A DNA stretch of 23,277 bases from Armatimonadota bacterium. Lineage in GTDB: Bacteria; Armatimonadota; Zipacnadia; Zipacnadales; UBA5352. The notes under the pieces were generated by a model. The model saw nothing but the letters and a program-made list of their open reading frames with translations, searched no databases and was not told the DNA's origin. Position numbers and translations under genes: made by a program. The stretch's first letter is position 1. Each line of letters opens with the position of its first letter. The stretch is from positions 1-23,277 of the forward strand of contig JAYENL010000240.1 of assembly GCA_034722055.1 (NCBI GenBank), read 5' to 3'. This document shows, piece after piece, positions 160 to 21,013 of the stretch.

Positions 160-1623
160 TCACGCGAACGGAATGTGCAGCGGTCGCCCCTGAGCCGCCA
201 GCGCCGCCTCGTGCAGGGCCTCGCTGAGCGTGGGGTGAGCGTGAATCACGTCAATGATGGCGTCCACGCTCAGCCCCTGCTCGATCGCCAGCGTCAGCTC
301 CGGCATCAGCTCGGTGGCGTAGGTGCCGCACACCGTGGCGCCCAGCAGCCTCCCGCTCTGGGGATCTGACAGCAGCTTGGCGAAGCCGTGTCGAGCCCCG
401 GTGCACACCGCCCGGCCGTTCGCGGCAAAGGGGAAGCGCCCCACGTTGACCTCGATGCCCAGCTCCTTCGCCCGGTACTCCACCAGCCCCACGGAGGCGA
501 TCTCCGGATGACAGTAGGTGGCGGTGGGCACGGCGTTGTAGTTGATGTGGCTTGCGATCCCCTGCGTCGCCTCCACGGCCGCCACGCCCTCGTGCATCGC
601 CAAGTGCGCCAGTCCGATGCCCCGGATGCAGTCGCCGATGGCGTAGATATGATCCATCGAGGTCCGCAGTTGCGTGCCCGGACACATCGCCGCATGGGGG
701 TGATCCGGATCGGAGGCCGGTGTGCTGACTCCCTCCTGGACGCAGATGCCCTGCCGCTCGATCTCCAGCCCGATCTCCTCGGCGCCGAGCTCCTCCAGGT
801 TCGCCTCCCGGCCCATAGTGAGCAGCACCACCTGGGCCTCGAGCTGCTCCTCCTCGTCATTGCGCTCGAAGATCACGCGCTTGGCGTCTCCCGCGTCCTC
901 GATGCGCCGGACCATGGCGCTGACCTCCGTCCTGCCGCCCCGGCGCTGGAAGGTGCGCATGACCACTTCGCTGGCCTCATGGTCCTCGCGCGGCAGCGGG
1001 CGGTCGAACAGCTCCATGAGGGTCACATCGGTCCCGAAGTGCAGGTAGGCGCAGGCCATCTCCGCCCCGGTGGCACCGCTGCCGATGACGATCATGGATT
1101 CGGGGATGAAGGGCACGTTCAGCGCGGTGTCGCTGGTCCATACGTTCTTGCTCCGGGCCCCCTCGATGACGTCGATGACCGGCTCCGACCCGGTGGCCAC
1201 GATGATGTGCTCGGCCTCGATGGTGCGCTGCCCGTCGCCGGTGGTCACCGTCACCTCGTGCTCACCCGCGAACCGCCCGTGCCCGCGGATAAGCTCCACG
1301 CCGGCCCTCTCCAGGAGGGTCTCCACGCCGGTGACGAGCTGCTTGACGGCGCGCTGCTTGTGCCGTCGCACGCGCTCCACGTCGATGCTGAGGTCCTCAA
1401 CCACGACCCCGAACCGCGACGCGCTCTCGCAGCTTTCGAGGATGTGCGCGGTGTGGAGCAGCGCTTTGGCGGGGATGCAGCCCCGGTTGAGGCAGGTCCC
1501 CCCCACCTCGCGCTCCTCGACCAGCGCCACCGACAGATCGAGCTGCCTGGCGCGCAGCGCAGCGACATACCCCCCCGGTCCCGCCCCGATGACCGCCAGG
1601 TCGTAGCGGTCGGTATCGCTCAT
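160..1623 (-). CDS. lpdA: Dihydrolipoamide dehydrogenase (E3)
   Basis: FAD-binding GAGPGGY, redox disulfide GGTCLNRGCIP, NAD-binding GSGATG and C-terminal HAHPTLSE. Start placed at ATG 1623 (MSDTDRYD) behind an AGAGAGGA RBS rather than at the ORF-track start 1911. Confidence 0.92.
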   Translation of the reverse strand: MSDTDRYDLAVIGAGPGGYVAALRARQLDLSVALVEEREVGGTCLNRGCIPAKALLHTAHILESCESASRFGVVVEDLSIDVERVRRHKQRAVKQLVTGVETLLERAGVELIRGHGRFAGEHEVTVTTGDGQRTIEAEHIIVATGSEPVIDVIEGARSKNVWTSDTALNVPFIPESMIVIGSGATGAEMACAYLHFGTDVTLMELFDRPLPREDHEASEVVMRTFQRRGGRTEVSAMVRRIEDAGDAKRVIFERNDEEEQLEAQVVLLTMGREANLEELGAEEIGLEIERQGICVQEGVSTPASDPDHPHAAMCPGTQLRTSMDHIYAIGDCIRGIGLAHLAMHEGVAAVEATQGIASHINYNAVPTATYCHPEIASVGLVEYRAKELGIEVNVGRFPFAANGRAVCTGARHGFAKLLSDPQSGRLLGATVCGTYATELMPELTLAIEQGLSVDAIIDVIHAHPTLSEALHEAALAAQGRPLHIPFA

Positions 1624-1714
1624 GGTGCCATCCTCTCTTCGGAGCCCGCTCCGCCCGTCACCGCAGTGCCGTTCGCCGTAAGCGGTTGCTTTTCCGCCAT
1701 TGCAGTTGCCGTTA

Positions 1715-1749
1715 GCTCGTGGCTCGTCGCTGGTAGCTGGTAGCTGACG
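1715..1749 (+). repeat. GCTNNNN heptamer tandem array, 5 units
   Basis: GCTCGTG GCTCGTC GCTGGTA GCTGGTA GCTGACG between the PHP gene stop and lpdA. Confidence 0.75.
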
Positions 1750-1750
1750 T

Positions 1751-2551
1751 TCACCCCGCCGCCGCCTCGCCCACGGGCCTGGCCGGCCGCCACAGGTGGC
1801 TGTCCCACCGCTCCTCGGGCAGTCCGGCCTGGCGCAGGATGGCGACGTGGTAGCTGAAGTCCCCGAACTCCGACCAGCGGTGCGTGTCCGTCCCCACGGC
1901 CAGCGGCACACCCATCTCCGCCGCCAGCCGCGTCATGCGCAGGTCCTCAGCGGGGTACTGCTTGTGGGAGTTTATCTCCAGGGCGAACCCGCGGTCTCTC
2001 GCCGTCGCCACGGTCCAGCAAAGCAGCTCCTCGGACAGCGGCACGTCGGCGGCCAGCAGCAGTCGCCAGGGATGCGCCAGCACCTGCATGCCATGCCCCG
2101 CCAGGGCCTGCACCTGAAAGCGGAACTCGGCCTCGATCTCCTCCGGCCGCCCCTGGTGGCGCAGCGTCGGCATGGAGTGCACCGCGCCGAGCACTACGTC
2201 CAGCGTCCCCAGCAGGCCCTCCGGGAAGACCTTCCGCCCGTCGGGCAGCACGTCCAGCTCGATGCCCACCAGCATCCGCCCCCGCTGGGCGGCGCGGGCG
2301 GCGCGGATGTAGTCGAGGACCCTCTGGCGGGCGGCCGGGCGGCCGGCCTCGAACAGCGCCTCAGCGTCGTCGGTCCAGAAGCCCCAGCGGTTGCCCGGCG
2401 GGTAGAAGATGTGCGCGGAGTGGTCAGTCACGGCGAAGGCAATATCGGTGCTGAGCGCTCGCTTGGAATATCCCTGGAGGCTGACGTCCTCGGCGCAGGA
2501 AGAGAACTCGCTGTGGGTGTGACAGTCGAAGAGCTCGGTCTCCATCCTCAT
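1751..2551 (-). CDS. PHP-domain phosphoesterase (HisPPase/YcdX-like)
   Basis: Motifs DCHTHSEFS, AVTDHS, GIELD, GAVH, LAHP, LEINS and GTDTH match the PHP metal-binding pattern. Start may be ATG 2545. Confidence 0.88.
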   Translation of the reverse strand: MRMETELFDCHTHSEFSSCAEDVSLQGYSKRALSTDIAFAVTDHSAHIFYPPGNRWGFWTDDAEALFEAGRPAARQRVLDYIRAARAAQRGRMLVGIELDVLPDGRKVFPEGLLGTLDVVLGAVHSMPTLRHQGRPEEIEAEFRFQVQALAGHGMQVLAHPWRLLLAADVPLSEELLCWTVATARDRGFALEINSHKQYPAEDLRMTRLAAEMGVPLAVGTDTHRWSEFGDFSYHVAILRQAGLPEERWDSHLWRPARPVGEAAAG

Positions 2552-2586
2552 CTCTCGTGCGCGTGCTGCCTGTTGGTGTTTGGGGC

Positions 2587-2615
2587 ATGGTACACCGACC
2601 CGCGCGCCGAATCAA
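2587..2615 (-). promoter_or_regulatory. Putative sigma70 promoter for the PHP-lpdA unit
   Basis: Minus strand reads TTGATT-17 nt-TACCAT, with the -10 box about 36 nt upstream of the start codon. It is AT-rich against a very GC-rich background. Confidence 0.6.
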
Positions 2616-2780
2616 GCACAGGAGCGCCCGGTGCGCCGTGGGCGTATAGCGAGGCCGGCTGCCACTTCGTTGCGGTGGGTGCTCTCTGCGAGGGTCGCTT
2701 CTGTGCCTGGCGCCGGAGCTTCGGCGGGCGGCGGCGGCCGGAGCCGGTTGCCCGCCTCTCCCCGCGACCACAGCCCCCCC

Positions 2781-3265
2781 GCCGCAACGGCGGGCCGGAC
2801 AGTGGTCCGGCCCCTCCATACGCCACGGCAACAACCACCGACACCGGCGTGCACGCCCCGCAGCGTGGCCACGCCGCCCCTCCATACGGCATAGAGGCGT
2901 CGCCGTCAGCCTCCAGCCTGCCGCCATCCCGGTGCCGTCAGCTTGCAGCTTGCGGCTTGTAGCTGCCAGTGCTGTCGGGCGCGGTCCCGTGCCGCGCCGG
3001 TCGTTGTCGTCCGCCGTTGCTGTTATGTCGGACGGAGCGGCGGGCTGCCTAGCCCGCCGTCGTTGCCGTCTGCCCCCGTAGGGCCCGTTGTTTCTCGTAC
3101 TCGTCTCGTGCTGCGCTACGGGTGAAACGCCTGCGAGGCCAGCCTCCGCTGGCGGGCGCTTCGCGGTGGCACACGCCCCCTCGTCCCAGAGCAACTCCAT
3201 ACGGCACGGCAACAACCGCCGACAACGGCGTCCACGCCCGGCGGCGTGGGCACGCCGCCCCTCCG
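2781..3265. repeat. Mosaic cluster of REP-like palindromes plus a 4-unit GCTNNNN array (2941-2968)
   Basis: GGGCCGGAC-agtg-GTCCGGCCC followed by CTCCATAC (2792-2821), GGCGCGGtcccgtgCCGCGCC (~2978-2998), CGGCGGGCTgcctAGCCCGCCG (3038-3059) and GGCGGCGTgggcACGCCGCC (3241-3260). Each unit recurs at 15410-15625 and/or 17994-18037. Confidence 0.85.
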
Positions 3266-3311
3266 TGCGGCAGGCGAGCGGGTAGGGGCTGACCTCCGCG
3301 GGCAGTCCGGG

Positions 3312-4379
3312 CTAGTAGATCCCGGGGCCGTCGTCCACGTAGGAGAGGGGCAACTCCACCGGCGCCCCACCCTCGCGGCTGGACTTGTAGATGGCCTTGA
3401 TGACCTCCACGGCCTTGCGCGCCTCATGGCCGGGAATGGCCGGCTCGCGGTCCTCCATGATGGCCTCGCACAGGTCCTGCACGTGAGCCACGTGGCCCGT
3501 GGCGGTGAGGGCGGTGGGGTCAGAGGCTGTGCCCTCGCCCGCGGCCTCCTCCGCCTCGCCCTCTTCCTCCTCGCCGGGGATGTCCCACATGGTGATGTTA
3601 TCGCCGGAGAGGCCGATGCTGCCGTTGTCGCCGTGGATCTCGACCTTGCAGCCGTAGCCGGGGGTCACGCTGGTGGTGCCCTCCAGCACGCCCAGGGCGC
3701 CATTCTCATACTCCAGCAGGGCCGCTGCGGTGTCCTCGACGGCGATGTTGCGCACCAGCCGGCGGCACATCGCACAGACCCTGGCGACGGGCCCCATCAG
3801 GTGGATGATCAGGTCGATGCCGTGCACCCCCTGGTTCATCAGCGCGCCGCCGCCATCCAGCTCCCAGGTGGCCCGCCAGTCGCCGCTGGCGTAGTACTCG
3901 TGGGAGCGGAAGTACTTCTGGTAGCAGTCGCCCATCACCAGCTTGCCCAGCTTGCCCGTCCGCACCGCCTCCCGCACCCTCTTGGTGCTGTCGTAGGTGC
4001 GGCGCTGGAAGACGCCCGCCAGCTTCACGTCGTTGCGCTCGGCGGCCGCGATCATGTCGTCGATCTTCTTCAGGGTCACGTCCAGCGGCTTCTCGCACAG
4101 GATGTGCTTGCCCGCCTCCGCCGCCATGATGGCCTGCTCGGAGTGCATGCCGCTGGGTGTGCACACGCTCACGGCGTGCAGGTCGTCGCGCTGAAGCATC
4201 TCCTCGACGTCGCGGTAGTAGCTGTCCCCGATCCCGGCCTCCTCGGCCAGGGCCTTCGCCTTCTCCTCCACGATGTCGCAGCAGGCAACCAGCTCGGCGG
4301 CCTCGACCTCCTCGATGGCCTTCCGGTGCGTGCCGGAGATGACCCCGCAGCCGATAATCCCAAAGCCGATCTTATCCAT
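3312..4379 (-). CDS. Gfo/Idh/MocA family NAD(P)-dependent oxidoreductase
   Basis: GIIGCGVIS Rossmann motif, HILCEKP, GGGALMNQGVHGID. RBS GGAGGG upstream of the ATG. Confidence 0.93.
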   Translation of the reverse strand: MDKIGFGIIGCGVISGTHRKAIEEVEAAELVACCDIVEEKAKALAEEAGIGDSYYRDVEEMLQRDDLHAVSVCTPSGMHSEQAIMAAEAGKHILCEKPLDVTLKKIDDMIAAAERNDVKLAGVFQRRTYDSTKRVREAVRTGKLGKLVMGDCYQKYFRSHEYYASGDWRATWELDGGGALMNQGVHGIDLIIHLMGPVARVCAMCRRLVRNIAVEDTAAALLEYENGALGVLEGTTSVTPGYGCKVEIHGDNGSIGLSGDNITMWDIPGEEEEGEAEEAAGEGTASDPTALTATGHVAHVQDLCEAIMEDREPAIPGHEARKAVEVIKAIYKSSREGGAPVELPLSYVDDGPGIY

Positions 4380-4464
4380 CGATCTGTTCCCTCCGTCCTG
4401 TTCTGTGAAGGCTGTATGTGGGTCTCTGCCGCCGGCCCATAGCCGGCGGACGTCAGCCTCGAGG

Positions 4465-5487
4465 CTACTCCGCGCCCGCCTCGAGGTTGTCGAGCGTCTC
4501 CAGTATCAGGATCAGCGCCTCCGCCGTGGCATCGGTCTGCGCCGACACCAGGTCGCTGGGGAGCTGCGGCTCCAGCCAGCTCCCGTCGGGATTCTGCCGC
4601 TCCACCAGCGCCTCCAGCACGGCCTCGGCGATGCGCCGGTAGTTGACGTTGCCGGTCACCAGAAACAGCCGGGAGGCCGCCCAGCCGAAGAAGCCACTGC
4701 GGGGGCTGGTATAGCGGTCCTCGGCGCCGGACTCGCACAGGTCCACGAACTCCTGAGCCACCTGGGTGTAGGAGCGCTCCTCGATGGCCTCGCCGATCTT
4801 GGTCAGGAAGCCCGCCACCAGTCCGGGCACGAAGTACCACTGTCCGGGCTCTGTGAGCTGCAGCACGTACTCGGCGTCGAGGCCCTCGCCGTAGACGCGC
4901 ACCGGCTCCTCGCCCCGGCGGACCATCAGATACATCCGTTCCCCCGTCTGGGGTATCTGCTCCCAGCGGCGCACCAGGAAGTCGGCGGCGGCGCGGGCCA
5001 CCCGCTCGTCGCCCATGTACAGCGCCGCCAGTCCCGCCGCGGCGGTGCCCAGGGCGTCCTCCTCGTCATCCAGCCCCGCCTCGGGGCCGTCGCGCAGGAA
5101 TCCGCCGGTGTCCGGATGCTGCAGGCTGGACAGGAAGGCCCACGCCCGGATGGAGACCCCGAACTGGCCCAGCTTCTGAGCGCCGGCGATGATCCACGCC
5201 GGGCCGTAGGCGTAGTACCGCTCCAGCGACCCCTGGCGCCCGAAGCTCGCCCCCAGGTCCCCGTCCTCGTCCATACTGTTATCCACGATCCACGTGCACA
5301 GGCGCACTCCGCGGCCGCTCTGACCGCTGAGGGCCAGGGCGTAGGGGACCTTGTGGAAGCCCGCCATCCCCTCCGCCAGGGGCTGGAAGGAGCCGTCGTC
5401 GTTCTGCTGTCGTATCAGCCACTTGACGGCCCGAATGGCCGCCTGCTTGCACGTTGATCTGTCCGTCGTCATCACTCCCGGCATCAT
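4465..5487 (-). CDS. Prenyltransferase/squalene-cyclase repeat (QW-motif) alpha/alpha-barrel protein of unknown function
   Basis: Three QW-type repeats: WLIRQQNDDGSF, FLSSLQHPDTGGF and LVERQNPDGSW. Start is uncertain (5487, 5484 or 5472). Confidence 0.7.
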   Translation of the reverse strand: MMPGVMTTDRSTCKQAAIRAVKWLIRQQNDDGSFQPLAEGMAGFHKVPYALALSGQSGRGVRLCTWIVDNSMDEDGDLGASFGRQGSLERYYAYGPAWIIAGAQKLGQFGVSIRAWAFLSSLQHPDTGGFLRDGPEAGLDDEEDALGTAAAGLAALYMGDERVARAAADFLVRRWEQIPQTGERMYLMVRRGEEPVRVYGEGLDAEYVLQLTEPGQWYFVPGLVAGFLTKIGEAIEERSYTQVAQEFVDLCESGAEDRYTSPRSGFFGWAASRLFLVTGNVNYRRIAEAVLEALVERQNPDGSWLEPQLPSDLVSAQTDATAEALILILETLDNLEAGAE

Positions 5488-5547
5488 CGCGCGCCCCCGG
5501 GCGGGAGGGCGTGCCGCGTCATCGTTGCAGGTGCCATGGCGCCGGCG

Positions 5548-8500
5548 TCAGGTCAGAACGACGCCCTCCTCCACCACCTGCTCGCCGCGGTCGGCGTACG
5601 CCACCTTCTCGCCCTGCGGCACCGTCCGCCAGATCAGGAACTGCTTGCGGATCGAGGACAGGAACAGGGAGTTCGTCTTCTTCCAGGAGGTGATATCCCC
5701 GGCCAGCCGATCCAGCCGGATCTCGATGGCGTAGATGTTCTCGTCCTCGGTGGGCAGACACGACAGCGAGAAGTCCTGGCTCACGCCCAGGTCATACGGC
5801 GCCAGCCACATGCGCAGCTTCACCGCCACCCCGTCCTCGGGCTCGTCGCCCAGCGCCTCCAGCCGCACGTTCTCAGCCAGAAACTCCCCGCCGGCGTAGC
5901 CGACGTACTCGGAGAAGAACTCCTGGAGGAAGGCCGCCACCCCGAAGGCGTCGCGACCGGTCACCGTGAAGGGCAGCCGCACCAGCAGCACGTCGCCCTC
6001 CGGCTCCGGCAGCTCCCACTTCCGGGCGATGCCCGGCGAGGCGATCTCGGAGGCCTTCTTGGAGGGGTAGACCGTGGACAGCAGCACCACGATCACCACC
6101 AGGATGGTCACGCCCACCGCCGACATGGAGGAGTAGTTGAGCTCCACGCCGGCCTGGATCTTGAAGGTGTGGATGCCGTAGGCCAGCACCTGCCCCAGCA
6201 GGTAGCCCACGATGGCGCCCAGGTTCGCGAACACCGAGGCCTCCGCCAGGAAGAGGATGGCGATGTGCGACGGCGCCAGCCCCAGGGAGCTGTAGATGCC
6301 GATCTCTCTGGTCCGCTCGTAGACCGCGCCCAGCATGGTGTTGAGCACGATCAGCGCCGCGATCAGGATGGGGATGGCCATCGTCTCCAGCCCCGCCGCC
6401 GTGGTCATGCCCACGGAGCTGAACAGGTAGCTGTCATCGCCCACCCCGGCGTAGAGGCTGAGGGCGAAGCGCTTCATCATGCGATCGACAGTCTCCGCGA
6501 CCTCCTCGGTCTCCTCGAAGCGGATGCCCACCGAGCGGAGCGTCCCGCCCAGCTCCAGAGCCGTGTCGTAGGGAATCACCGCCAGCTTCTCCAGCCCGTA
6601 GTGCTTGTAGTCCTGGAGCAGCGACTGGGCGCCGGAGGAGCCAAGCTGCGAGCGCCGCTGTGCCTGGCGCTTGAGCTCCTCGATGACCTCCGGCCGCAGC
6701 ATGGCGTAGTTCACCGGCGTCATCGGCTCTCCGTCGAGGTCCTGCATGTCGCGCATTGCGGCCTCATCGACGATGCCGACGACCGTGAAGTCGGCGCCGA
6801 ACAGCTTCACGCTGACGTCGCCCACGTCGCCGGGCCCGACCTCCAGCGTCTGCGCCAGGGACTCGGGCAGGAGGATGACGTTCTTCTCCCCGCGCTCGAT
6901 CCACCGGCCGGCCTTGAGCATCAGGTCGGCGTCCATGATCTCATCTTCCTGGGGGGAGAGCCCCAGGATGGCGTTGACCGTGTAGGTCTTCGAGAGGTCG
7001 TCCGCCAGGGAGATGTCCACCATCAGCTCCTTCTCGAGGTCGGCGCTGGTGTACCACGCCCGTGGGGAGACCACCGCCTCCTTCTCAAGCTCATTCTCGA
7101 TGATGTCCGCGGTCGGCGCCTCCAGCGACAGCCAGGAGCGATCCCGCAGCATAATGCCCTGGTAGCTGGGGTCGTGTGACAGGACGATCTTGTTGTGGCG
7201 CAGGTAGGACTTCACGGAGGTGAATGACAGCACCGTGAAGGTCAGGAGGATGAGGGTGACCGCGGTCAGGGCGGTGCGGGTCTTCCGCCGGCGCATGTTG
7301 GCGATCCCCAGCCCGAAGGCCGCGCCGGCCACCGACAGCCGTCCCACGTCGGCCTCGTGCACGCCGCCACGGGACTGCTTCATCGACTTGAGCTCCTGGT
7401 TGAACTTCATGGTCACGATGCTGATCACCAGCACCGCCAGCGCCATGACGATGAACGCCAGCAGAATGATCGGCGGGCTGGTGGTCAGGGCGAAGGCCGG
7501 ATGCACCAGCGCCAGCAGCATGAACACGATCACGAAGACCACCACCGTGCCTATGATCTGCCCGATGATGGTCCGGGCGTACACGAACAGCCGCTCCCCG
7601 AAGAACGCGAAGGGCAGCAGGATGGCCAGGTAGAACAGCACACCCTTCACTACGTCCTCAGCGGTCTTTCGCACGTCCGGGTAGGCCCGGGACTCGTACC
7701 CCCAGGCGTGGCGGGCCGTGGCCATAGCAGTGTCGTACTGCCGTTCCTCCAGCGCATCCCTGGCGGTATCCAGCGCCTCGTACGCCGTCTCGTGCAGCTC
7801 CCCCACCCGCTTGTTCGTGATCCCGTGCTTCTCCAGCCGGTTGATCCGGTACTCGTCGATCAGCCACATGTCGTTGGCGATCTGCAGCGGCGTCATGTGG
7901 ATCGCCGGCGTCTGGGCCGCCGGGAAGCCCACACCGGTGGGCTTCGCCCGCGTGGCGTTGATGCAGACCATCCGAATCCCCACCAGCCCCATGGACATCG
8001 TCACCTGGAAGTCAATATCGGGCATGGAGTAGAGGACTGCGCACGGCTCCGTGTAGGAGGGGAACTCCGCGGCCACCTTGATCTCATCGATCGAGTAGCC
8101 GTAGGAGATGGGCTCCGAGTAGTCCTCGGCGTCGTAGACGAACACCTTCTCCAGCGTCTGGAAGTAGCGCTCATCCACCAGGTCATACAGGTCGGTGGCC
8201 ACGCACCGGAAGACGATCACCGGCCGCTTCAGCCCCGCCCTGCCGTAGACGTCGCGGGGGTACTTCTTGTCCCCGTCGGTACCCCTGTCGGGAGCGTAGA
8301 TGATGTCGCCGCTGTCGGGGTCGAAGTCGTAGGCCTCGAGCTGCGCCGACCGGCTGGCCATCTCGCCCCGGATGAGGAACTCGCTGGTCTCGTTGGCCAT
8401 GGACATCGCCGTGGTGTGCACGCCCATCATGATCCGGTACTGCCCCTGGACCAGCACCAGGGCGTCGGCCACCGGGCTGTTGGGCACGAAGCTCTCTCGC

Positions 8501-10305
8501 CGGCGGAACTCCAGCACAGTGCCCTCCACGTCCTCCAGGTCGTCCATCTTCTTCAGCGCCTCGACGCGCTTGAGGGCCCTGTCGCTGAGCGTCATCTCGC
8601 CCAGCAGCCGGTGCAGCAGATTCACCAGCATCCGGTTCTGCGCCATCAGGTTGTCCATGTTCAGCCGGTCCGGGGTGTCCAGCGGCGTATTCACCCAGTT
8701 CCGGGCGTCGTTGACGGTGGTGAGAGTGATCCCCGGACGCCCGCCACGGATCACCATCTCGTGATCGAAGGCGATCTTGCCAGGGAAGAAGGTGTGCCAC
8801 TCCCGACCCTTGATGGGGTTGATCCCGTCAACGAATCGCTGCTCCACCGGCACCCTCAGCGAGGCCGCCACCCGCTCGGCGTAGTCCGAGAACTGCTTGC
8901 CCAGCGGGGAGTAGAACCGCAGCAGGTGGGCCTGCGCGAAGTACCAGCCCACCTGGAAGGCCCCCAGCGTGGGCGTGTGTGTGCTCAGGTCCAGGCCGAT
9001 GAACATGTGGATGGTCTTGAACTGGTCGAGCGCCTTCCAGATGCGCATATACTCCTTCTTGCGCTCGATATCGTCCTGTAGCCTGTCCACGCGCCGATAG
9101 CCCATCTCGGCCGACAGCTCGAGCTGGCCGATCTGGACCCGGTTGGCCATCTCCTCGCGGCGCTCCAGTTGCGCCTCCGACAGGTCCGCCTTCTCGCGCT
9201 CCAGCTCCTGCCGGCGCTGCTTCATCTTCTCGATCTCCGAGCGCGTGATCCTGAGCTGCCGCTTGAGCTGTTCCAGCTCGCGCTCCAGCTCCTTGTAGCG
9301 GTCCTGGCGCTGGCGCTTCTTCCGGGGCTCCTTGCCCCACAGGTCCACGAACTCCTTGGCGCCCGACAGGGCCTCGAAGTGCCCGCTGCAGGCCAGGAAG
9401 ATGACGCTGCGCTTGGGCCGGTGCTCGGCGAAGATCTCCGCCAGCTCCAGCAGCGTGGCGATGGACACCGCGTTCTCGGCCCCCGGCGCCCGTGAGGGCA
9501 CGATGGAGACCGAGTCATAGTAGGCCTCCAGGATCATGGCCTCCTCGCGGAGGGTGGGGTCGCTGCCGGGAAGGATGCCGATGATGTTGCGGTTGGTGCG
9601 GTTCTCCCAGTGCGTCTGCGCGGTGAGCGTGCCCTCCAGCTCGGCGTCGGCGGCCGCCTCCTTCAGCGCCTGGCCGTCCTCGCGGTCGATCCAGAATCGG
9701 GGCACGTCCACCGGCACGCGCAGCCACTTCGTCTCCGCCTCGCCGCGCGTGGTGACCTCCGGCTCGATGAGCACTACGGCCGCCCCGCCCAGCAGCGGCA
9801 CGTTCAGCCAGTTCTGCCCGTTGTTGAAGTCCATGAGCACGATGGCGTCCTTGACGGGCTTGCCGTTGAAGTCCGAGAGGTGGCCGTCATCGACGTAGAT
9901 GATGGGCCCCTCCAGGCCCTCCTTCGGCACACAGGAGGTGCGGCACAGGTTCGGCCACAGGCCGGCCAGCTCATAGCTCTCACCGCCGGCCTCCAGCGCC
10001 GCGCCGCCCTCCAGCGGCGTGGGCAGCTCGAACTCCTGCACGTAGGTGGTCATCCCCAGCTCCTCGAAGGCATCCAGGATGATGTCGGCCGCCTCCTGGT
10101 TGCCCGGATAGCCTGAGACCCTGGAGCCGAGGTCCGCGAACTGCTCTATCCTTGACGCCAGCCGCTGCTCCGAGATCTGGTCAGCCAGCTCGCGGGGGTT
10201 CATCGCGCCCCAACTGGTGCCGCACATGGCCACCGTCAGCAGTGCCCCAACCGCGATGACCGCGCTCAGCTTCCGGAGCGCCGTTTGCTGTCTGGTGAGT
10301 GGCAT
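5548..10305 (-). CDS. Giant fusion protein: signal peptide, PA domain, M28 peptidase-like domain (degenerate), TM block and MacB/FtsX-like ABC permease
   Basis: Start placed at ATG 10305 (MPLTRQQ) after GGAGGAAG, giving ~1585 aa. M28-like SRVSGYPGN...NIIGILPG...EAYYDS...PGAEN, MacB-type ANMRRRKTRTALT and FtsX-type NTMLGAVYERTREIGIYSSLG. Confidence 0.88.
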   Translation of the reverse strand: MPLTRQQTALRKLSAVIAVGALLTVAMCGTSWGAMNPRELADQISEQRLASRIEQFADLGSRVSGYPGNQEAADIILDAFEELGMTTYVQEFELPTPLEGGAALEAGGESYELAGLWPNLCRTSCVPKEGLEGPIIYVDDGHLSDFNGKPVKDAIVLMDFNNGQNWLNVPLLGGAAVVLIEPEVTTRGEAETKWLRVPVDVPRFWIDREDGQALKEAAADAELEGTLTAQTHWENRTNRNIIGILPGSDPTLREEAMILEAYYDSVSIVPSRAPGAENAVSIATLLELAEIFAEHRPKRSVIFLACSGHFEALSGAKEFVDLWGKEPRKKRQRQDRYKELERELEQLKRQLRITRSEIEKMKQRRQELEREKADLSEAQLERREEMANRVQIGQLELSAEMGYRRVDRLQDDIERKKEYMRIWKALDQFKTIHMFIGLDLSTHTPTLGAFQVGWYFAQAHLLRFYSPLGKQFSDYAERVAASLRVPVEQRFVDGINPIKGREWHTFFPGKIAFDHEMVIRGGRPGITLTTVNDARNWVNTPLDTPDRLNMDNLMAQNRMLVNLLHRLLGEMTLSDRALKRVEALKKMDDLEDVEGTVLEFRRRESFVPNSPVADALVLVQGQYRIMMGVHTTAMSMANETSEFLIRGEMASRSAQLEAYDFDPDSGDIIYAPDRGTDGDKKYPRDVYGRAGLKRPVIVFRCVATDLYDLVDERYFQTLEKVFVYDAEDYSEPISYGYSIDEIKVAAEFPSYTEPCAVLYSMPDIDFQVTMSMGLVGIRMVCINATRAKPTGVGFPAAQTPAIHMTPLQIANDMWLIDEYRINRLEKHGITNKRVGELHETAYEALDTARDALEERQYDTAMATARHAWGYESRAYPDVRKTAEDVVKGVLFYLAILLPFAFFGERLFVYARTIIGQIIGTVVVFVIVFMLLALVHPAFALTTSPPIILLAFIVMALAVLVISIVTMKFNQELKSMKQSRGGVHEADVGRLSVAGAAFGLGIANMRRRKTRTALTAVTLILLTFTVLSFTSVKSYLRHNKIVLSHDPSYQGIMLRDRSWLSLEAPTADIIENELEKEAVVSPRAWYTSADLEKELMVDISLADDLSKTYTVNAILGLSPQEDEIMDADLMLKAGRWIERGEKNVILLPESLAQTLEVGPGDVGDVSVKLFGADFTVVGIVDEAAMRDMQDLDGEPMTPVNYAMLRPEVIEELKRQAQRRSQLGSSGAQSLLQDYKHYGLEKLAVIPYDTALELGGTLRSVGIRFEETEEVAETVDRMMKRFALSLYAGVGDDSYLFSSVGMTTAAGLETMAIPILIAALIVLNTMLGAVYERTREIGIYSSLGLAPSHIAILFLAEASVFANLGAIVGYLLGQVLAYGIHTFKIQAGVELNYSSMSAVGVTILVVIVVLLSTVYPSKKASEIASPGIARKWELPEPEGDVLLVRLPFTVTGRDAFGVAAFLQEFFSEYVGYAGGEFLAENVRLEALGDEPEDGVAVKLRMWLAPYDLGVSQDFSLSCLPTEDENIYAIEIRLDRLAGDITSWKKTNSLFLSSIRKQFLIWRTVPQGEKVAYADRGEQVVEEGVVLT

Positions 10306-10372
10306 CTGAGTGCTTCCTCCTTGCCTGCCGCTACGCCGGCATCGCCCGCACCCGCGGGCGCCCCTGTGCGGC

Positions 10373-12406
10373 TCAGCCGAAGTGAACCACGTAGCGACGG
10401 CCCATCTCTTCATATATCGCGCTCAGCCAACCCCACACCAGGCCGGCTGTGAAGAAGTGCCCCACGACGATTCCCAGAAAGAACGGGATCAGGCGGCGGT
10501 ACATCCCCATCCCGCCGACGCGCAGGATGAGCGTCTTGATCACCCAGACGATGAAGAACGGCCCCCACAGCGGTCCGCCGTAGGCTGTGACCATCGCGTA
10601 GCCCAGCGGGTGCAGGGGAAAGCGCAGGAAGATCGAGCGCAGCCCGATCAGCACGGCCGCCACCACAAAGCCCACCGCTGCGGCGCCTGTCTTGCCCCGG
10701 TCCGGCTCCTTGTGGCCCCGCTCGAAGCTGGCCAGCTCCTCGTACTCCGTCGTCGCCAGCCGCGTGCGATAGCCGCCCTGGGTCGTCCCGCCCTCCAGGA
10801 TGTTCGCACCGTGCGTGTAGTACGCCTGCAAGTGTATCACATAGGCACCGGCCAGTCCAACCAGGAGCGCCACCACCAGCCACACCGCCATGGTCCTCTG
10901 ACAGATGCGCCCCTGGTCGGCGATCTTGGTGGCCTCGATCTGATACGCCATCATGGACTGGAAGTAGCCGCGCGAGAGGAACATCAGCAGCGAGAAGATG
11001 GTCAGATTCGACCACCCGCCGAAGCGCACGTAGGGCTCTGAGCCGGCGATGTTGATCATCATCCGCTTATGCTGGTAGAACGGGAAGAGCCACACCATGG
11101 CCGCCCCCGCCTCCGCTCGCGCGCGAGCGTAGACCAGCGAGAACAGGAAGAACAGGAACAGGTAGATGGCCGCCGTCCACAGCGCCATCCCCGCCATCGA
11201 CGTCCACAGCAGCATCCCGCCGAACCCCACCACCAGCCCGATGAGAGCCCCGCGGTAGGTCATCGGCTCATCGCTGTCATCCACCTCCGGCGCCCTGCCC
11301 AGGGCCTTGCGGAAGATCCGGCCCAGGTGCTCCCGGCCCACGTAGGTGAGGAACAGCCCCAGGGCCAGATAGGAGCCGAAGGACTGCTCCTGCACGTGGG
11401 GGAAGCCGGCCGGCTCATGCCCCATCGCCGTGGCCGCCACGTTGGTCAGCCGCTCCAGGAGGTAGAACACCCACACCGACAGCGTGATCTCGGTGGGGAC
11501 CAGATAGCCCAGCCCGAAGTTCTCCGGTCGCCAGGCGATCGACAGGGGCTGGATGGCCGACCACGGGCGCTCCGTGAACAGGCCTCCCAGGTCGTGGCTC
11601 CGGCCCATCGCCGGCACCGCCGGGTTCCAGGCGTTGAAGATGTTCATCACGTTGTAGATCGCCGCCAGCGCGAAGCCCGTCCACATGGCGCCGCTCTTGA
11701 AGAAGCTCAGCGCCGTCGCCGCGCTCTCGCCGCCTGAGAGCTCCATCACCAGGTGGACAATGGGGAAGGTCAGCCGCTCCCGCTCCACCCACTGGCGCCG
11801 GAACATGGTCATCAGCGACAGCATGCCGATGAAGGCCAGCAGCAGCAGCACCGTCCACGCCACCAGCGGCACCAGCCACGCTCCCCACGGCACCACCAGC
11901 GAGGAGACCAGCCACGGCTGCACATCCGGCTCGCTGTCAACGGCCTCGTACATCTCCCGGATGACCTCCGGGTCCCCGGGCCTCAGCCAATCGGGGATGT
12001 GCTCCTGAAACTGGGCGAAGTTGTTCTCCGGGGTGGCGAAGTAGAACAGGGCAGTGGAGTTGGGGAACAGCATCCGGGCCACGCCCACCGACGACATGGA
12101 GACCGCGATGCACAGGAAGGCGTAGACCATCAACGCGCCCCCGCGCCTGAGCTGCAGCCACCGCGGGAGCTTGCGAAACAGCGGGAGGAGCAGCGTCAGC
12201 ACCAGCAGGGCCCCCACCGCCGGCACCACCGGAACGCTCTCACCAAGCTGGGCCCCGTGGCCCACCAGCCCCGACTGCTTTATCCACAGCAACGAGAAGA
12301 CCAGGAACACCAGCGACAGCACCACGGCCCGCCACGACAGGCCGTAGAGCTCCTCCGCCTCCTGGGCTCGATCCTCGGGCATCTCCGTCTGTCGCTCAAC
12401 AGCCAC
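10373..12406 (-). CDS. DUF6785/DUF6784-like polytopic membrane protein (putative peptide-transporter-like)
   Basis: Many hydrophobic segments, QWVERERLTFP, and C-terminal FPLHPLGY...WVIKTLILRVGG...YRRLIPFFLG. Family recognised from recalled motifs, not from a search. GTG start follows AAAGG; alternative ATG at 12383. Confidence 0.8.
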   Translation of the reverse strand: MAVERQTEMPEDRAQEAEELYGLSWRAVVLSLVFLVFSLLWIKQSGLVGHGAQLGESVPVVPAVGALLVLTLLLPLFRKLPRWLQLRRGGALMVYAFLCIAVSMSSVGVARMLFPNSTALFYFATPENNFAQFQEHIPDWLRPGDPEVIREMYEAVDSEPDVQPWLVSSLVVPWGAWLVPLVAWTVLLLLAFIGMLSLMTMFRRQWVERERLTFPIVHLVMELSGGESAATALSFFKSGAMWTGFALAAIYNVMNIFNAWNPAVPAMGRSHDLGGLFTERPWSAIQPLSIAWRPENFGLGYLVPTEITLSVWVFYLLERLTNVAATAMGHEPAGFPHVQEQSFGSYLALGLFLTYVGREHLGRIFRKALGRAPEVDDSDEPMTYRGALIGLVVGFGGMLLWTSMAGMALWTAAIYLFLFFLFSLVYARARAEAGAAMVWLFPFYQHKRMMINIAGSEPYVRFGGWSNLTIFSLLMFLSRGYFQSMMAYQIEATKIADQGRICQRTMAVWLVVALLVGLAGAYVIHLQAYYTHGANILEGGTTQGGYRTRLATTEYEELASFERGHKEPDRGKTGAAAVGFVVAAVLIGLRSIFLRFPLHPLGYAMVTAYGGPLWGPFFIVWVIKTLILRVGGMGMYRRLIPFFLGIVVGHFFTAGLVWGWLSAIYEEMGRRYVVHFG

Positions 12407-12435
12407 CGTATGTGCCTTTCGTGCCGACCTGAAAC

Positions 12436-12465
12436 TTGACGTCGCCGAAGGAGTTTTGGTATTCT
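12436..12465 (+). promoter_or_regulatory. Putative sigma70 promoter with extended -10
   Basis: TTGACG (12436-12441), 18-nt spacer ending TGG, TATTCT (12460-12465). Predicted +1 is about 12472. Confidence 0.7.
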
Positions 12466-12471
12466 CCCCTT

Positions 12472-12623
12472 GGCCTGAGAGGACCTCCGCTGGGCCGGAG
12501 ATTCCGCAGAGAGCTCGGATGCATCGTTCTCAGCGTGCCCGGAGGCCCTACTGCTCCGGGCTCCGCGCTTTCTGTGGCCGCGGCGGCTGAGGTCGCCGCT
12601 GGCGCAAAGCGTCCGGTGAGGCC
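12472..12623 (+). ncRNA. Candidate structured RNA of unknown class (~152 nt)
   Basis: Hand-folded nested stems: GGCCU/AGGCC plus GGAC/GUCC closing stem, CCGCAGAGAGC/GCUUUCUGUGG plus CGGA/UCCG, GCCCGGAG/CUCCGGGC, GCGGCGGC/GUCGCCGC and CUCCG/CGGAG. It begins at the predicted TSS. Confidence 0.45.
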
Positions 12624-12900: not shown

Positions 12901-13019
12901 GCTCGTAGCTTGTAGCTCGCAGCTCGTAGCTTGCTGCTTGTAGCTTGCTGCTGATAGCTGACTGCTGATAGCTGACTGCTGATAGCTGACTGCTGATAGC
13001 TGATCGCTGACAGCTAATG
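12901..13019 (+). repeat. GCTNNNN heptamer tandem array, 17 units
   Basis: Strict 7-bp period with invariant GCT, including alternating GCTGATA/GCTGACT. Ends just before the GGAGG RBS of the next gene. Confidence 0.95.
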
Positions 13020-13032
13020 ACTGGAGGACGTC

Positions 13033-13833
13033 ATGGGTCTTACCATCTGCCCCAAGTGCGGCGCGACCGTGCAGGAGACTGATACCCACTGCATGGAGTG
13101 TGGCGCCAACCTCGCTGAGGCCGAGCGGGAGCTGGCTCGCAAGGAGAAACAGACCCGCGGCGGCGGCCCCATCATCAGCGACGAGCCGGTTGTCCAGGGC
13201 GCCGCCGCGGGGCTCGCCGAGCCCGGCGAGACCTCGGAGAAGGTTCGCCTCAAGGAGTTCGACCGGCAGCTGGCCCGGAAGCTCGTGGCCGAGCGCACCG
13301 CCGTAGTCATCACCGCCCTCATCGCTCTCGTGGCCGGAGCCGGCATCCTCTTCGCGGGGTGGAGCGCCCTGAAGGCCGTCGGCGGCGTGGAGGCCCTCAG
13401 GGCGATGAGCTACGCCGACCTTCGCGAGCGCGGGCTGGGCGCCTTCGCCGACCAGGCCTTTATTTCGGCGCTGCTGATACTGCTGGGGCTGTCGGGACTG
13501 CTGTGCATGGCCGGGCAGGTCCATCGCTTCGTGCTGGCTCAGAGGGCCGTGGCGCAGGTGAGGGCCGGGGAGCGCCCCGACGTGGTGGGCATCAGCAGCA
13601 TGACCGCCTGGGGCCTGATCATCGCCTCCTTCGTCTGTCCTCCGCTGGGCATCATCCTGGGGATCATCTTCACGTTGGGCCAGGATGAGAACACGCGGGA
13701 TCTGGGCGGCACCATGATCAAGAGCGCGCTGATTGCGGTGGCGGTCGTCATCGCCCACCTCATCTGGAACGCCGTGGCGGGCTTCGCCTCCCAGGCCGGC
13801 GCCTCCCGTGCCGTCACCAACGCCGCGGAGTAG
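13033..13833 (+). CDS. Zinc-ribbon-containing membrane protein
   Basis: N-terminal CPKC-x9-HCMECG, then about four hydrophobic segments. GGAGG RBS at 13023-13027. Confidence 0.8.
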   Translation: MGLTICPKCGATVQETDTHCMECGANLAEAERELARKEKQTRGGGPIISDEPVVQGAAAGLAEPGETSEKVRLKEFDRQLARKLVAERTAVVITALIALVAGAGILFAGWSALKAVGGVEALRAMSYADLRERGLGAFADQAFISALLILLGLSGLLCMAGQVHRFVLAQRAVAQVRAGERPDVVGISSMTAWGLIIASFVCPPLGIILGIIFTLGQDENTRDLGGTMIKSALIAVAVVIAHLIWNAVAGFASQAGASRAVTNAAE

Positions 13834-15409: not shown

Positions 15410-15760
15410 ATGCTAGGCAGCCCGCCACTCCGTACGACATGACGGCAGCGGCAGGCCACAACGACCGACCACGAGCGGAGGCGCGGCACGGGTCCGCGCC
15501 CTACAAGGCGCCGCTCCTGTGCCGTGCGGCGCGGCGTGCCCACGCCGCCCGTCGTTGAGGGCGTTCTCCGTGGTCGTTTCCGTGCCGTGTGGAGGGGCCG
15601 GACCACCGTCCGGCCCGCCGTTGCTCTGTCGGGCAAGGATGCCCGACCTACGCGGATGACATCTCTGTCGGGCAAGGATGCCCGACCTACGCGGGTGACA
15701 GGGTCTCTGCTTCTGCAGAAACATCTCTGTCGGGCAAGGAAGGAGGCCCGACCGACGCGG
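15410..15760. repeat. Mosaic REP-like cluster between convergent genes
   Basis: 15412-15504 is an inverted homolog of 2974-3056 and 15581-15624 of 2784-2827. Three tandem GTCGGGCAAGGATGCCCGACCTAC units (15628-15651, 15667-15690, degenerate 15729-15756) read GTAG plus palindrome on the minus strand. Confidence 0.88.
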
Positions 15761-15777: not shown

Positions 15778-17898
15778 CTAGCGCTGCAACTGCTCGATGA
15801 CCTCGAGCATCTCCAGGCGCAGGTCGCTCATGTGGCGCAGCGTGGCCTCCGGCGCAGGATCGAACTCCCAGATGTACCGGTGGTCGCGCGGCGCGTCGGC
15901 GAAGGCGTCGATGGGCGTGATGCGCCGCGCCTCCGCCAGCAGCTCCCGGCCCCGGCTCGCCGTCTCGCCCTGGCGGCCGGCGACCAGCCGCTGCAGCGTC
16001 TGCAGCACCCGGTAGTCCTCGATGCCCTCCCGGCGGGCCTCCCACCCCACGGTGCCGATCGGTCCCTGATCGGAGGCGATCATGTACCACTCCCGCCAGG
16101 CCTCGGGGAGCTGCCAGCGGCCCTCCTCGTCCCGCTCGAGGGCGCGCTCGGAGTAGTAGGCCCACTGACCCAGCCCGCCGATCCCCGTCCGCCACGCCCA
16201 CAGGCCGCAGATGAAGCGGTCGAACTCCGGCCGCTGACCGCGATGCCGGCAGTCGTAGGCCCACAGCTCTCTGCCCTCGCGCTCCGCCCGCGCCATCAGC
16301 TCCTCGCTGACTGATCCGTGGGACGCGATCCAGACGTCGTAGAGCTCGCCGATCTGCTCGATGCCGTAGCCGCCGATGGCCGTGACCGTCCGGGCCTGCG
16401 GGACCTTCGCGTAGACCCGCTCGTAGGTCGCGCGGACCGCCTCGACCCGCTCCGGCGTGTTCGGCTCATCGTGCACGTAGAACAGCAGCGGCGGCCAGCC
16501 CAGCTCCTCGCCCATGCGCAGCAGCGTCCTCACGCTCTCGGGCTCCCGGAATCCGCCCCACGTGGAGCCGCACGCGGACAGGAGGATCAGCGGCCGGTCC
16601 GGCGACGCCAGCCCGGCCTCGCGCATCTGTGCCAGCCGCTCGGCCAGGCCGAGGAAGTGCCGGGGGTCATCGGGATCGTAGCGCCAGTTGTGGTGCAGGT
16701 CGATCTCGACGCGGCCGTCCACGTCGTGCTCGGGCTCCACGTAGAGGCTGACGGAGTTCATGCCATGCTCCGCCATGTCGCGGTAGTAGGCGGCCTGCAT
16801 GGGCGCCGTCGCCATCTCCGGCGGCAGGTAGCTGTCGGAGTAGTACATGAAGAACGTGGCGTCGGCGGGGTCGAGCCGCACCTGCGGCACGTCCACGATC
16901 ACCTGCACCAGCGTCCGATCGTCGCCGGTGTAAAGCCACATCGCCAGCAGCACCGTCTCCAGCGGATAGCCCTCCGGCACATGCACGCGCACGCCGTACT
17001 GCAGCACATCACCGGCTGGCACGTCCACCTCCTGCGGGGGAAGCAGCAGCAGCGGATGGCGCTCGTAAGACTGCGACGTCAGCCCCCGCCGGCCGTAGCC
17101 GACCTGCAGCAGCTCGGCGTCGATGGGAGGCCGCCGCGCGTGGGCGAACAGCGGCGCGTCCTGGGGAATCAGCTCCGCGCGCACATCCTCCAGGTCGCGG
17201 AGGGCGCGCACCCCCAGCACGATGGTCTCGAACTGTCCCGGCGGGCAGGCGCCCCTGATCGGTGTGTGGCAGTCCCAGCGCGTGGGGGCGTAGCGGGCCG
17301 GCACGAAGTCGTTGGCCTTGCGGCCGAAGATCATGAAGCCCCGCTCGCGCTCGTGGCTGGTGGGCTCGGTGAGCTCGTTGACCGTCGGCGTGAGGTCGCC
17401 GATGCGCACCGACTCGTCCTCCCACATGCGCACCGCGTCCCAGTGCGCCTCCGGGCCGAAGCTTAGCAGGCCCACTTGTACCACGCTGTCGCTCTCGCGG
17501 GTGCGGAAGTCCAGCTTCAGCTCCAGCCAATCGCCGATGACTGCCCACCCGGTGCTCTTGGCGGCCAGCGTGTTCAGCACCGCGTCGTAGGCCACCAGCG
17601 AGTAGTAGCTGGCTTTCGGCGCGCGCAGGTAGGCGCGCAGGCGATAGCCCGTGTCCGGCTTCACGTGCACGCGCTGCCTGGCCAGCGCGTGTGAGGCGCC
17701 CTCGGGCCTGGCGAGCCTCAGCCACCGCTCGCCCTCCGGGGCGCCGCCGGTCTGCATCGTGGCGACTTCCTCCGCCACGCGCCAGCCGGTCGGCAGCCCA
17801 TCCTGGAGCTGCTCGAAGGAGCCGTTGGTCACCATGTTCTGCGGCTGCGCGGCTGCCAGCGTGCAGGCACACAGCAGCGTCAGGCACGTTGCGCGCAT
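15778..17898 (-). CDS. Secreted carbohydrate-binding-module plus DUF4091/GH123-like glycoside hydrolase domain protein
   Basis: Signal peptide MRATCLTLLCACTLAAA (ATG 17898 after GGGAGAG), CBM-like NMVTNGSFE...GW, YVHDEP acidic pair and C-terminal WEARREGIEDY. Confidence 0.72.
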   Translation of the reverse strand: MRATCLTLLCACTLAAAQPQNMVTNGSFEQLQDGLPTGWRVAEEVATMQTGGAPEGERWLRLARPEGASHALARQRVHVKPDTGYRLRAYLRAPKASYYSLVAYDAVLNTLAAKSTGWAVIGDWLELKLDFRTRESDSVVQVGLLSFGPEAHWDAVRMWEDESVRIGDLTPTVNELTEPTSHERERGFMIFGRKANDFVPARYAPTRWDCHTPIRGACPPGQFETIVLGVRALRDLEDVRAELIPQDAPLFAHARRPPIDAELLQVGYGRRGLTSQSYERHPLLLLPPQEVDVPAGDVLQYGVRVHVPEGYPLETVLLAMWLYTGDDRTLVQVIVDVPQVRLDPADATFFMYYSDSYLPPEMATAPMQAAYYRDMAEHGMNSVSLYVEPEHDVDGRVEIDLHHNWRYDPDDPRHFLGLAERLAQMREAGLASPDRPLILLSACGSTWGGFREPESVRTLLRMGEELGWPPLLFYVHDEPNTPERVEAVRATYERVYAKVPQARTVTAIGGYGIEQIGELYDVWIASHGSVSEELMARAEREGRELWAYDCRHRGQRPEFDRFICGLWAWRTGIGGLGQWAYYSERALERDEEGRWQLPEAWREWYMIASDQGPIGTVGWEARREGIEDYRVLQTLQRLVAGRQGETASRGRELLAEARRITPIDAFADAPRDHRYIWEFDPAPEATLRHMSDLRLEMLEVIEQLQR

Positions 17899-20481: not shown

Positions 20482-21012
20482 TCAGGAGTCCCCCTCGTCG
20501 GACTCGCGCGGGAGGGTCTCGATCTCGTCATGCGCCGAGAACTCAGCCACCTCCGCCGTCTCGGCGACCTCGGCCATCTCCTCAGGCTCAGGCAGGTCGC
20601 TGTCAGGGTGGTGCAGGGCGTGGAAGGCCGCGTCCCATATCTCCCACACGCTCTCCGGCTGGTCCTGTGTGAGCATCGACACTACGTAGATGGCCAGGAA
20701 GGCGGCTGGAACGCTGACGATCGCGGGCTGGTCGAACGGCCAGAAGCCCGCCAGGTGGCCGATAACCACAACTGCCGAGATCAGGCCGCCCACCAGTAGC
20801 CCGGCGAAGGCGCCCTGCTCAGTGGTACGCCGCCACCAGATGCCCATCGCCAGCACAGGGAAGAAGGTGCTGGCCGCCACCGCCAAGGCCAGCCCCACCA
20901 TCCAGGCGATGTTCGCCTCCCGAAAGGCCAGTCCCACGAAGATCGCCAGCGCGCCACAGATGACCACCGCGATCTTCGCCACCGCCATCTTCTGCTGCTC
21001 GCTGGCCTCCGG
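20482..21012 (-). pseudogene. C-terminal fragment of a sodium:solute symporter (ActP-like)
   Basis: PEASEQQKMAVAKIA...NIAWMVGLALAVAASTFFPVLAMGIWWRRTTEQGAFAG matches the last helices of SSS/ActP permeases. The N-terminal two-thirds are absent. Confidence 0.75.
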
Positions 21013-21013
21013 A

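Follow-up and report, generated by a model that had tools for sequence, protein, structure and literature searches.

A MacB/FtsX-type giant protein and an OPT/YSL-fold DUF6785 carrier in Armatimonadota as candidate parts of a proposed system with a shared ATP module

The locus and its two proteins

Here, we describe a two-gene locus on a 23,277-nucleotide stretch of DNA (the window) from an Armatimonadota bacterium (GenBank assembly GCA_034722055.1, contig JAYENL010000240.1, here C240; host genome 6.1 Mb, 93% complete), in which a gene for a 677-amino-acid (aa) membrane protein with DUF6785 and DUF6784 domains (the carrier) precedes a gene for a 1585-aa MacB/FtsX-type membrane protein (the giant), and suggest that the giant may belong to an ATP-driven module shared by many such carriers. 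Fourteen genes were called on the contig. As a preliminary description of this DNA had noted, the two genes are co-oriented and lie 67 bp apart, according to open reading frames (ORFs), ribosome-binding motif and Pfam matches (Table 1), and no ATP-binding cassette (ABC) ATPase was found among the 14 genes by sequence or Pfam. The ribosome-binding motif of the giant gene sits 10 nt 5' of its ATG; a longer ORF-finder call starting at 10413 was rejected since it runs into the upstream gene, and an alternative ATG at 12382 in the carrier gene would yield a protein of 669 aa. A promoter and terminator scan gave no signals above those in shuffled sequences.

Table 1. Coordinates of the genes, motif and protein regions described (window positions unless a contig is named; residues are those of the giant)
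Feature	Position	Strand	Basis or context
DUF6785+DUF6784 carrier gene, 677 aa	10373..12406	-	ORF with GTG start, Pfam
Giant gene, 1585 aa	5548..10305	-	ORF, ATG at 10305
GGAGG ribosome-binding motif of giant gene, within the 67-bp spacer	10316..10320	-	sequence
PA + M28-type outer domain, residues ~34-575, nicalin-like, charged helical insertion ~330-420	8581..10206	-	sequence/profile
Outer beta-sandwich domains and three-helix stalk, residues ~590-880	7666..8538	-	model of 575-1585
Family-specific three-helix membrane module, residues 885-964	7414..7653	-	hydropathy, conservation
MacB/FtsX unit: transmembrane helix (TM) 1 at 1013-1031, periplasmic core domain, TM2-4 to 1419	6049..7269	-	Pfam, model
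Conserved cytoplasmic tail, residues 1430-1585	5551..6018	-	conservation, model
Divergent gene, N-terminal cysteine-pair motif, 4 TM, no Pfam match	13033..13833	+	
ABC ATPase, 302 aa, N-terminal zinc ribbon	C242:95383-96291		between small FtsX and second giant
Second C4 gene	C298:14356-16332		
PqqD-family gene	C100:30357-31247		

The carrier matches DUF6785 over residues 24-533 (E 4e-126) and DUF6784 over 575-665 (E 3e-22), and its AlphaFold2 model, built from 120 sequences, has a pLDDT of 93.8 and a pTM of 0.93. Foldseek (2 matches at E <=0.001) retrieved only barley YS1 (E 3e-8), and structural alignment with VIA against YS1 (PDB 7wsr/7wst) gave Z 23.9 and a root-mean-square deviation (rmsd) of 3.9 over 557 residues, with the next match at Z 5.6. 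The neighbour had been described as secondary-transporter-like; by this model it can now be named a protein of OPT/YSL (YS1) fold, with YS core and scaffold and a predicted C-terminal strand as in YS1. Identity to YS1 is only 11-13%, the Pfam OPT family PF03169 has no match in the carrier (it is carried by 11% of one related archaeal Atlas cluster), and sequence and profile searches of DUF6785 against solved structures gave no match. The carrier is one of 39 DUF6785 proteins encoded in this genome, of which 36 near-full-length paralogues share 20-67% pairwise identity (median 27%).

The giant has the architecture first proposed for it, with export signal, PA/M28 region, extra TM helices, MacB-type domain, FtsX block and tail all recovered by domain scan, hydropathy and models. 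Pfam finds Peptidase_M28 at 240-327, FtsX at 1310-1419 and, below the cut-off, MacB_PCD at 1056-1197 (E 5e-5); NCBIfam gives only partial LolC/MacB/FtsX-type matches far under cut-offs. Hydropathy places an N-terminal segment at 13-31, which we read as the export signal, and helices at 885-964 (three), 1013-1031 (one) and 1310-1412 (three). A model of residues 575-1585 (pLDDT 87.5) has beta-sandwiches, a helical stalk, the three helices, the MacB/FtsX unit and the tail; the four-TM MacB/FtsX fold, with its periplasmic domain between TM1 and TM2, is present. The first beta-sandwich weakly resembles the SusC N-terminal extension (Z 8.5), and the tail weakly resembles an SRPBCC/Bet v1-like fold (Z 8.3). 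The three extra helices and the tail rank among the most conserved parts of the giant, and we infer that the three-helix module is a candidate docking site for carriers. The family counts 1202 representatives at E <=1e-30; several members (P0035, P0045, P0058, P0070, P0078, P0088, P0150, P0335) have extra hydrophobic helices or inserts in the outer part of up to about 1200 residues.

The outer domain had been called a pseudo-peptidase, and this holds as far as the canonical site is concerned. An M28 fold with a PA domain is recognised by sequence and profile matches: residues 38-330 align with aminopeptidase YwaD (E 1e-11), on which the PA assignment is based, and a 107-sequence profile scores best with active aminopeptidases (E 1e-25) over the N-terminal half. 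The longest solved match of the profile is human nicalin (156-568 versus 89-520, E 7.8e-12; motif-like stretches over ~410 profile positions), followed by the transferrin receptor (E 2e-9) and nicastrin (E 6e-4). Site positions were taken from the YwaD alignment together with what we take to be the M28 ligand motifs, and the canonical site of five metal ligands and a catalytic glutamate is missing among 143 giants: the first His is Tyr in 108 (His in 7), the Asp is replaced by Gln, Asn or Ser, the Glu-Glu pair is His-Phe, and the last His is Asp in 114 (Asn in the window's giant), while one canonical Asp is retained in 128. Conservation of H309 (137 of 143), D439 (128) and E/D277 (125) leaves room for a rebuilt pocket; the M28 domain is without a canonical catalytic site, and these three residues leave its inactivity unproven. 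By its profile, the domain is possibly a prokaryotic relative of the nicalin/nicastrin branch and deserves a phylogeny.

Partner genes, gene order and co-occurrence

A second giant, 39% identical to that of the window, is encoded on contig C242 in the order small FtsX, ABC ATPase, giant and a protein here called C4. The small FtsX has 229 aa, four helices and no periplasmic domain, and from gene order and co-occurrence it is the likely dimer partner of the giant. The ATPase has Walker A, LSGGQ, Walker B and H-loop motifs, all intact, and may be used by the window's giant as well. C4 (647 aa) has no Pfam match and is a distant DUF6785 homologue (hhalign probability 94% over 508 columns). A second C4 gene, on contig C298, has counterparts at 71-81% identity in 3/3 tested genomes with a window-type giant and none in 2/2 tested genomes without one (51-52% only); because this type of C4 tracks the window-type giant in 5/5 genomes, it is likely the partner of the window's giant. 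The genome holds 39 DUF6785 genes, two giants, two C4 and one small FtsX, along with a PqqD-family gene on contig C100. PqqD proteins of this lineage have an acidic linker and a C-terminal cysteine-pair domain. Past C4, C242:82080-87555 (L001) contains two DUF1559 pilin-like genes, a RodA/FtsW gene, a conserved 327-aa gene and a TPR protein gene; about 70 pilin-like genes occur in the genome.

Gene order was compared at 20 window-type loci, drawn from 25 other genomes with a window-type giant. DUF6785 lies directly upstream of the giant in 18 of them and is missing in two (L034, L037), which bears out the co-localisation first suggested; the upstream gene can be a distant paralogue (44% and 28% identity). 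The adjacent carrier is one of 39 paralogues. At second-type loci, the order small FtsX, ATPase, giant and C4 occurs in 19/19 (one C4 is cut by a contig end and one FtsX was detected by tblastn), so that an ABC ATPase does sit beside the second-type giant, on another contig in this genome. Three loci (L061, L062, L087) hold DUF6785, giant, C4, small FtsX and two ATPases in one operon. In a sample of 20 loci spread over the phylum, C4 comes after the giant in 15 and DUF6785 before it in 3; one locus has both arrangements and 3 have neither, and a 320-aa gene, PqqD and small FtsX come next in 10/20. The two genes co-localise, but the pair is not the whole machine: in the phylum at large, the giant's constant partner is C4, joined by small FtsX, an ATPase and a PqqD protein, whose genes lie away from the window in this genome. 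In three families (L069, L074, L076), the giant is immediately preceded by two M16-family peptidase-like genes.

Co-occurrence was scored in 121 Armatimonadota genomes at least 85% complete, with the giant probed by residues 420-1000. DUF6785, giant and C4 are found in the same 98/121 genomes and none of the three in the other 23, with identical family and genus tallies that include five families split identically; small FtsX accompanies them in 97 of these genomes, the one exception being G069 (93% complete). DUF6785 was found in 0/14 control genomes, and the control family DUF1559, which also flanks these operons, has a different profile (116/121). DUF1559 proteins as obligatory binding subunits were rejected on that profile, on their expansion in several genomes that lack the system and on their count of 1/105 among carrier neighbours. 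Copy numbers are one-to-many: small FtsX is single in 94/97 genomes and C4 gives one match in 85/98, with 1-51 first-look DUF6785 candidates per positive genome, of which no more than about 11-14 were scored, and 4-27 scored DUF6785 matches in 18 genomes from a single genus, the giants of which group with records named Fervidibacter.

A natural fusion of giant (1-1455) and DUF6785 (1474-2110), with the carrier at the giant's tail, occurs in 1 of 264 giants listed; its cluster, with records named Ca. Latescibacterota, has 56 members, and 5 of the 15 listed are of full length (2083-2120 aa). No longer fused DUF6785 protein was found among 7992 candidates, in a weak search that also missed the known fusion. 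A quick giant tree requires three changes for the upstream-DUF6785 arrangement. Complex prediction of DUF6785 22-668 with giant 880-1003 or 1340-1565, run without folded controls, scored 0.15 and 0.02 against a mark of 0.32, which speaks neither for nor against contact. A single-giant scan of the species-genome collection returned 6 close loci only, and the range outside Armatimonadota is given by Atlas taxa and cluster names.

Upstream of the carrier, the divergent gene adjoins the window-type giant in 15/20 orthologous loci, including where DUF6785 is missing, and is detected in 29/31 relatives, 3 of them without a window-type giant; it may be a putative member of the system and is a neighbour kept beside the giant. 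Short tandem repeats lie at ~12915-13010 in the spacer between it and the DUF6785 gene. Downstream (window 160-5487, minus strand) are genes for a 340-aa protein with a weak squalene-cyclase-repeat match, a Gfo/Idh/MocA oxidoreductase, a PHP protein and a flavoprotein that presumably resembles dihydrolipoamide dehydrogenase; these were rejected as members of the system, as they are kept within the family only (9/10 same-family loci). Elsewhere in the window are two GH123-like glycoside hydrolase genes (15778-17898 and 21652-23190, minus strand), a sodium:solute symporter C-terminal fragment overlapping an opposite-strand InlB-repeat/PKD fragment (20482-21613), which look like gene remnants, and a dispersed intergenic repeat (approx. 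2780-2830, 15570-15620 and 17700-17760, also in L125) that gives the same spurious translation in several ORFs. A second repeat unit has three copies near 15600-15700.

A proposed shared module with exchangeable carriers, weighed against alternatives

In YS1, hairpins TM1-H1 and TM8-H6 together with the broken TM2 are described as likely substrate-binding elements, and Asp446, 490 and 494 (TM8-H6 loop and TM9) as proposed proton sites (PMC9691689). Variation was scored over 21 carrier segments as entropy among the 36 paralogues minus entropy among 85 close homologues. The four segments matching YS1 substrate-site elements rank 1-4 of 21 (1.80-2.17 bits, mean 1.14), and positions fixed in homologues and variable in paralogues are enriched in them (11/19 vs 36/129, p 0.015). 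Charges on the cytoplasmic side are kept among the 36 paralogues (R358 in 35, R428 in 35, E210 in 33, E432 in 31 and K624 in 31), and neither proton-site segment has an acidic column common to them (at most 12 and 6 of 36 acidic). Because variation sits at the predicted substrate site and cytoplasmic charges are kept, the paralogues look like carriers for differing substrates on a common frame.

Sugars appear the likeliest main cargo, on a neighbour signal that is modest. Close to DUF6785 genes, no more than two places away, a larger share of genes encodes large proteins that are soluble or secreted (33/130 vs 515/4379, p 1e-5). In a survey of 105 genes around 20 of the 36 paralogues and 129 genes in 16 of 20 drawn control windows, glycan genes together with sugar-catabolic enzymes number 34/105 vs 21/129 (p 0.005), and no solute-binding protein was found among the 105 neighbours. 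The whole genome has 10 matches to BPD_transp_1 (binding-protein-dependent ABC permease), 2 to TonB barrels and 19 to MFS.

Published expression data are available for the cultured Fervidibacter sacchari, whose protein WP_259093227.1 (PA + M28) is probably the giant, judging by an eggNOG seed score of 1113.6, similar to the 1139 bits between the two giants of the present genome; for window 4400-12500 itself, no RNA run was listed. In the paper, an 'M28 peptidase' and an OPT protein are named as signs that peptides are used, and the word transporter occurs only twice in the text (PMC11535203). WP_259093227.1 stands in row 22 of the RNA table, where its level differs less than twofold among eight substrates, and the proteome shows it flat across five (adjusted p 0.19); adjacent accession numbers belong to an FtsX-only permease and to a PqqD protein (PMC11535203). 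Word searches of the file turned up a single sugar ABC product and a single solute-binding protein, and no TonB receptor (PMC11535203). If the protein is the giant, its flat profile fits a constitutive shared module.

Our favoured reading, given tentatively and with slightly less than even confidence, is that one shared ATP module serves many exchangeable DUF6785 carriers, probably importing small nutrients of diverse kinds, above all sugars released from glycans. It joins observed folds, gene inventory, co-occurrence, copy numbers and one fusion family. The giant would pair with the small FtsX (229 aa) and a dimer of the ATPase encoded on C242, in the style of a LolCDE-type heterodimer. Each giant would carry one constant OPT-like C4, which for the window's giant would be the one on C298, and a variable DUF6785 carrier would dock, one at a time, beside C4 and the extra helices and tail of the giant; a C4-DUF6785 heterodimer through the scaffold domains is possible. 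ATP cycles would drive or reset the elevator movement of the carrier, whose hairpin loops would choose the substrate, and the outer domain would act as a scaffold or cargo funnel and not as a classical aminopeptidase.

Several points weigh against this reading. YS1 acts alone as a proton symporter (PMC9691689), DUF6785 retains the whole YS1 fold, and proton coupling has room here because E491 is acidic in 28/36 paralogues and E56 in 85/85 of the window's clade; the segments ranked for variation were matched to YS1 by topology and not residue by residue. Type VII ABC systems are described as working on the outer face, with no pore and no transmembrane substrate movement, so lateral coupling of motor to carrier would be new (PMC12646458). 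Kin are not independent, and the 23 negative genomes fall in 9 families, so the survey does not amount to 121 independent cases; nor can co-occurrence separate an energiser from an assembly or regulatory factor. In the neighbour survey, classes were assigned by hand, with putative families (DUF4838, DUF6259) counted on both sides, and glycosidase, lyase, sulfatase, BNR, deacetylase and carbohydrate-binding genes by themselves number 21/105 vs 15/129 (p 0.10), with a per-locus count of 15/20 vs 8/16 (p 0.17). Finally, the reading leaves the PqqD protein and the peptidase-like domain unexplained, both of which hint at peptides.

One alternative is that giant, C4 and ABC proteins form an assembly, quality-control or gating machine and that each DUF6785 carrier then runs alone on the proton gradient. 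Nicalin and nicastrin are non-catalytic scaffolds of membrane complexes, and nicalin acts in multipass protein biogenesis, so the profile matches to nicalin, and more weakly to nicastrin, suit such a role, as does the complete YS1 fold of the carriers; one-to-many copy numbers and strict co-occurrence fit it equally well. Over the N-terminal half, however, active aminopeptidases outscore nicalin, classical OPT and YSL carriers to our knowledge need no such machine, and a permanent fusion of giant and DUF6785 is easier to reconcile with a working complex than with a transient step of assembly, so that we regard this alternative as unlikely. Still less probable is a dedicated one-to-one pair, close to what was first proposed, in which cargo is caught by the outer domain and passed on to the adjacent DUF6785, a proton-driven carrier, while the other paralogues act independently. 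The upstream DUF6785 gene of 18/20 window-type loci, found on three separate parts of the giant tree, the natural fusion and the single DUF6785 match of some genomes (G103, G130, G142) all favour such a pair, but 0/121 genomes have DUF6785 in the absence of giant and C4, which holds also where the giant has no adjacent DUF6785 (17/20 phylum loci); the adjacent gene is absent in L034 and L037, and elsewhere it can be a distant paralogue, as noted above.

The same complex might instead handle peptides, by taking up peptides or by exporting and processing a ribosomal peptide that the PqqD-type protein recognises. A PqqD-family gene recurs regularly in the operons, the outer domain derives from a peptidase and has conserved residues of a possibly rebuilt pocket, some Atlas clusters carry PF03169, and members of the OPT family carry oligopeptides. 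Yet no recurring precursor-like or modifying genes were found in the loci examined, and the neighbours of 20 paralogues are far oftener glycosidase, lyase, sulfatase, BNR-repeat or sugar-catabolic genes than peptidase genes, which makes peptides an improbable cargo.

If the shared-module reading is true, a class of transporter is added, DUF6785/DUF6784 and the giant family gain a function, and a possible answer emerges to how Armatimonadota rich in carbohydrate-active enzymes, with few classical sugar importers, take up released products; the cultured genus Fervidibacter carries the system, so the reading can be tested. With more reserve, and as a possibility that we hold somewhat doubtful, this would be a new class of primary-active importer, built from a type VII ABC motor, a constant OPT-fold adaptor, a nicalin-like scaffold and dozens of elevator-fold carriers, which would be the chief means for Armatimonadota and other little-studied degraders of polysaccharides to take up sugars and oligosaccharides, and would be an independent invention of the principle behind energy-coupling factor (ECF) transporters.

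Comparison with known systems

The first description knew of no functional account of such a machine, and none was found here: a full-text literature search, with most subscription papers outside its scope, returned no paper with DUF6785, DUF6784 or their accessions, and no description of a shared ABC motor with many carriers. We know of no ABC motor that drives a carrier of secondary-transporter fold.

With type VII ABC systems (MacB, LolCDE, FtsEX, YtrEF, YbbAP-TesA), the giant shares the four-helix MacB unit and periplasmic core domain (against YtrF, VIA Z 15.6 with an rmsd of 18.8 over 342 residues owing to domain shifts; against FtsX, Z 13.8 with an rmsd of 3.1 over 167 residues), and a cognate ATPase with intact motifs is also present, here in trans on C242. 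A hydrolase-derived outer partner is common to the giant and YbbAP-TesA (PMC12646458). In contrast to these systems, the outer partner is fused and without a canonical catalytic site, the second subunit is without a periplasmic domain, and three extra helices, a tail and obligatory OPT-fold membrane partners are added. Nicalin, nicastrin and the transferrin receptor are profile matches of the outer domain, whose dinuclear site is lost and which is prokaryotic and fused to an ABC permease; its closeness to nicalin is by profile only. OPT/YSL carriers have the whole fold in common with DUF6785, which differs in having no PF03169 match, no acidic residue common to paralogues in the segments matched by topology to the YS1 proton sites and up to dozens of paralogues, and in never being found, among 121 genomes, where the ABC module is missing.

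Group II ECF transporters have one ATP module, for which the S-components, numerous scattered membrane subunits with their own substrate specificities, compete (PMC10368641). The present system, with one ATP module and many unlinked carriers, matches them as a genomic pattern only and without homology: its subunits have MacB/FtsX and YS1 folds and not those of EcfT, EcfA/A' or S-components, the motor is MacB/FtsX instead of EcfT, a large outer domain is present, and in place of small S-components there are 650-aa elevator-fold carriers.

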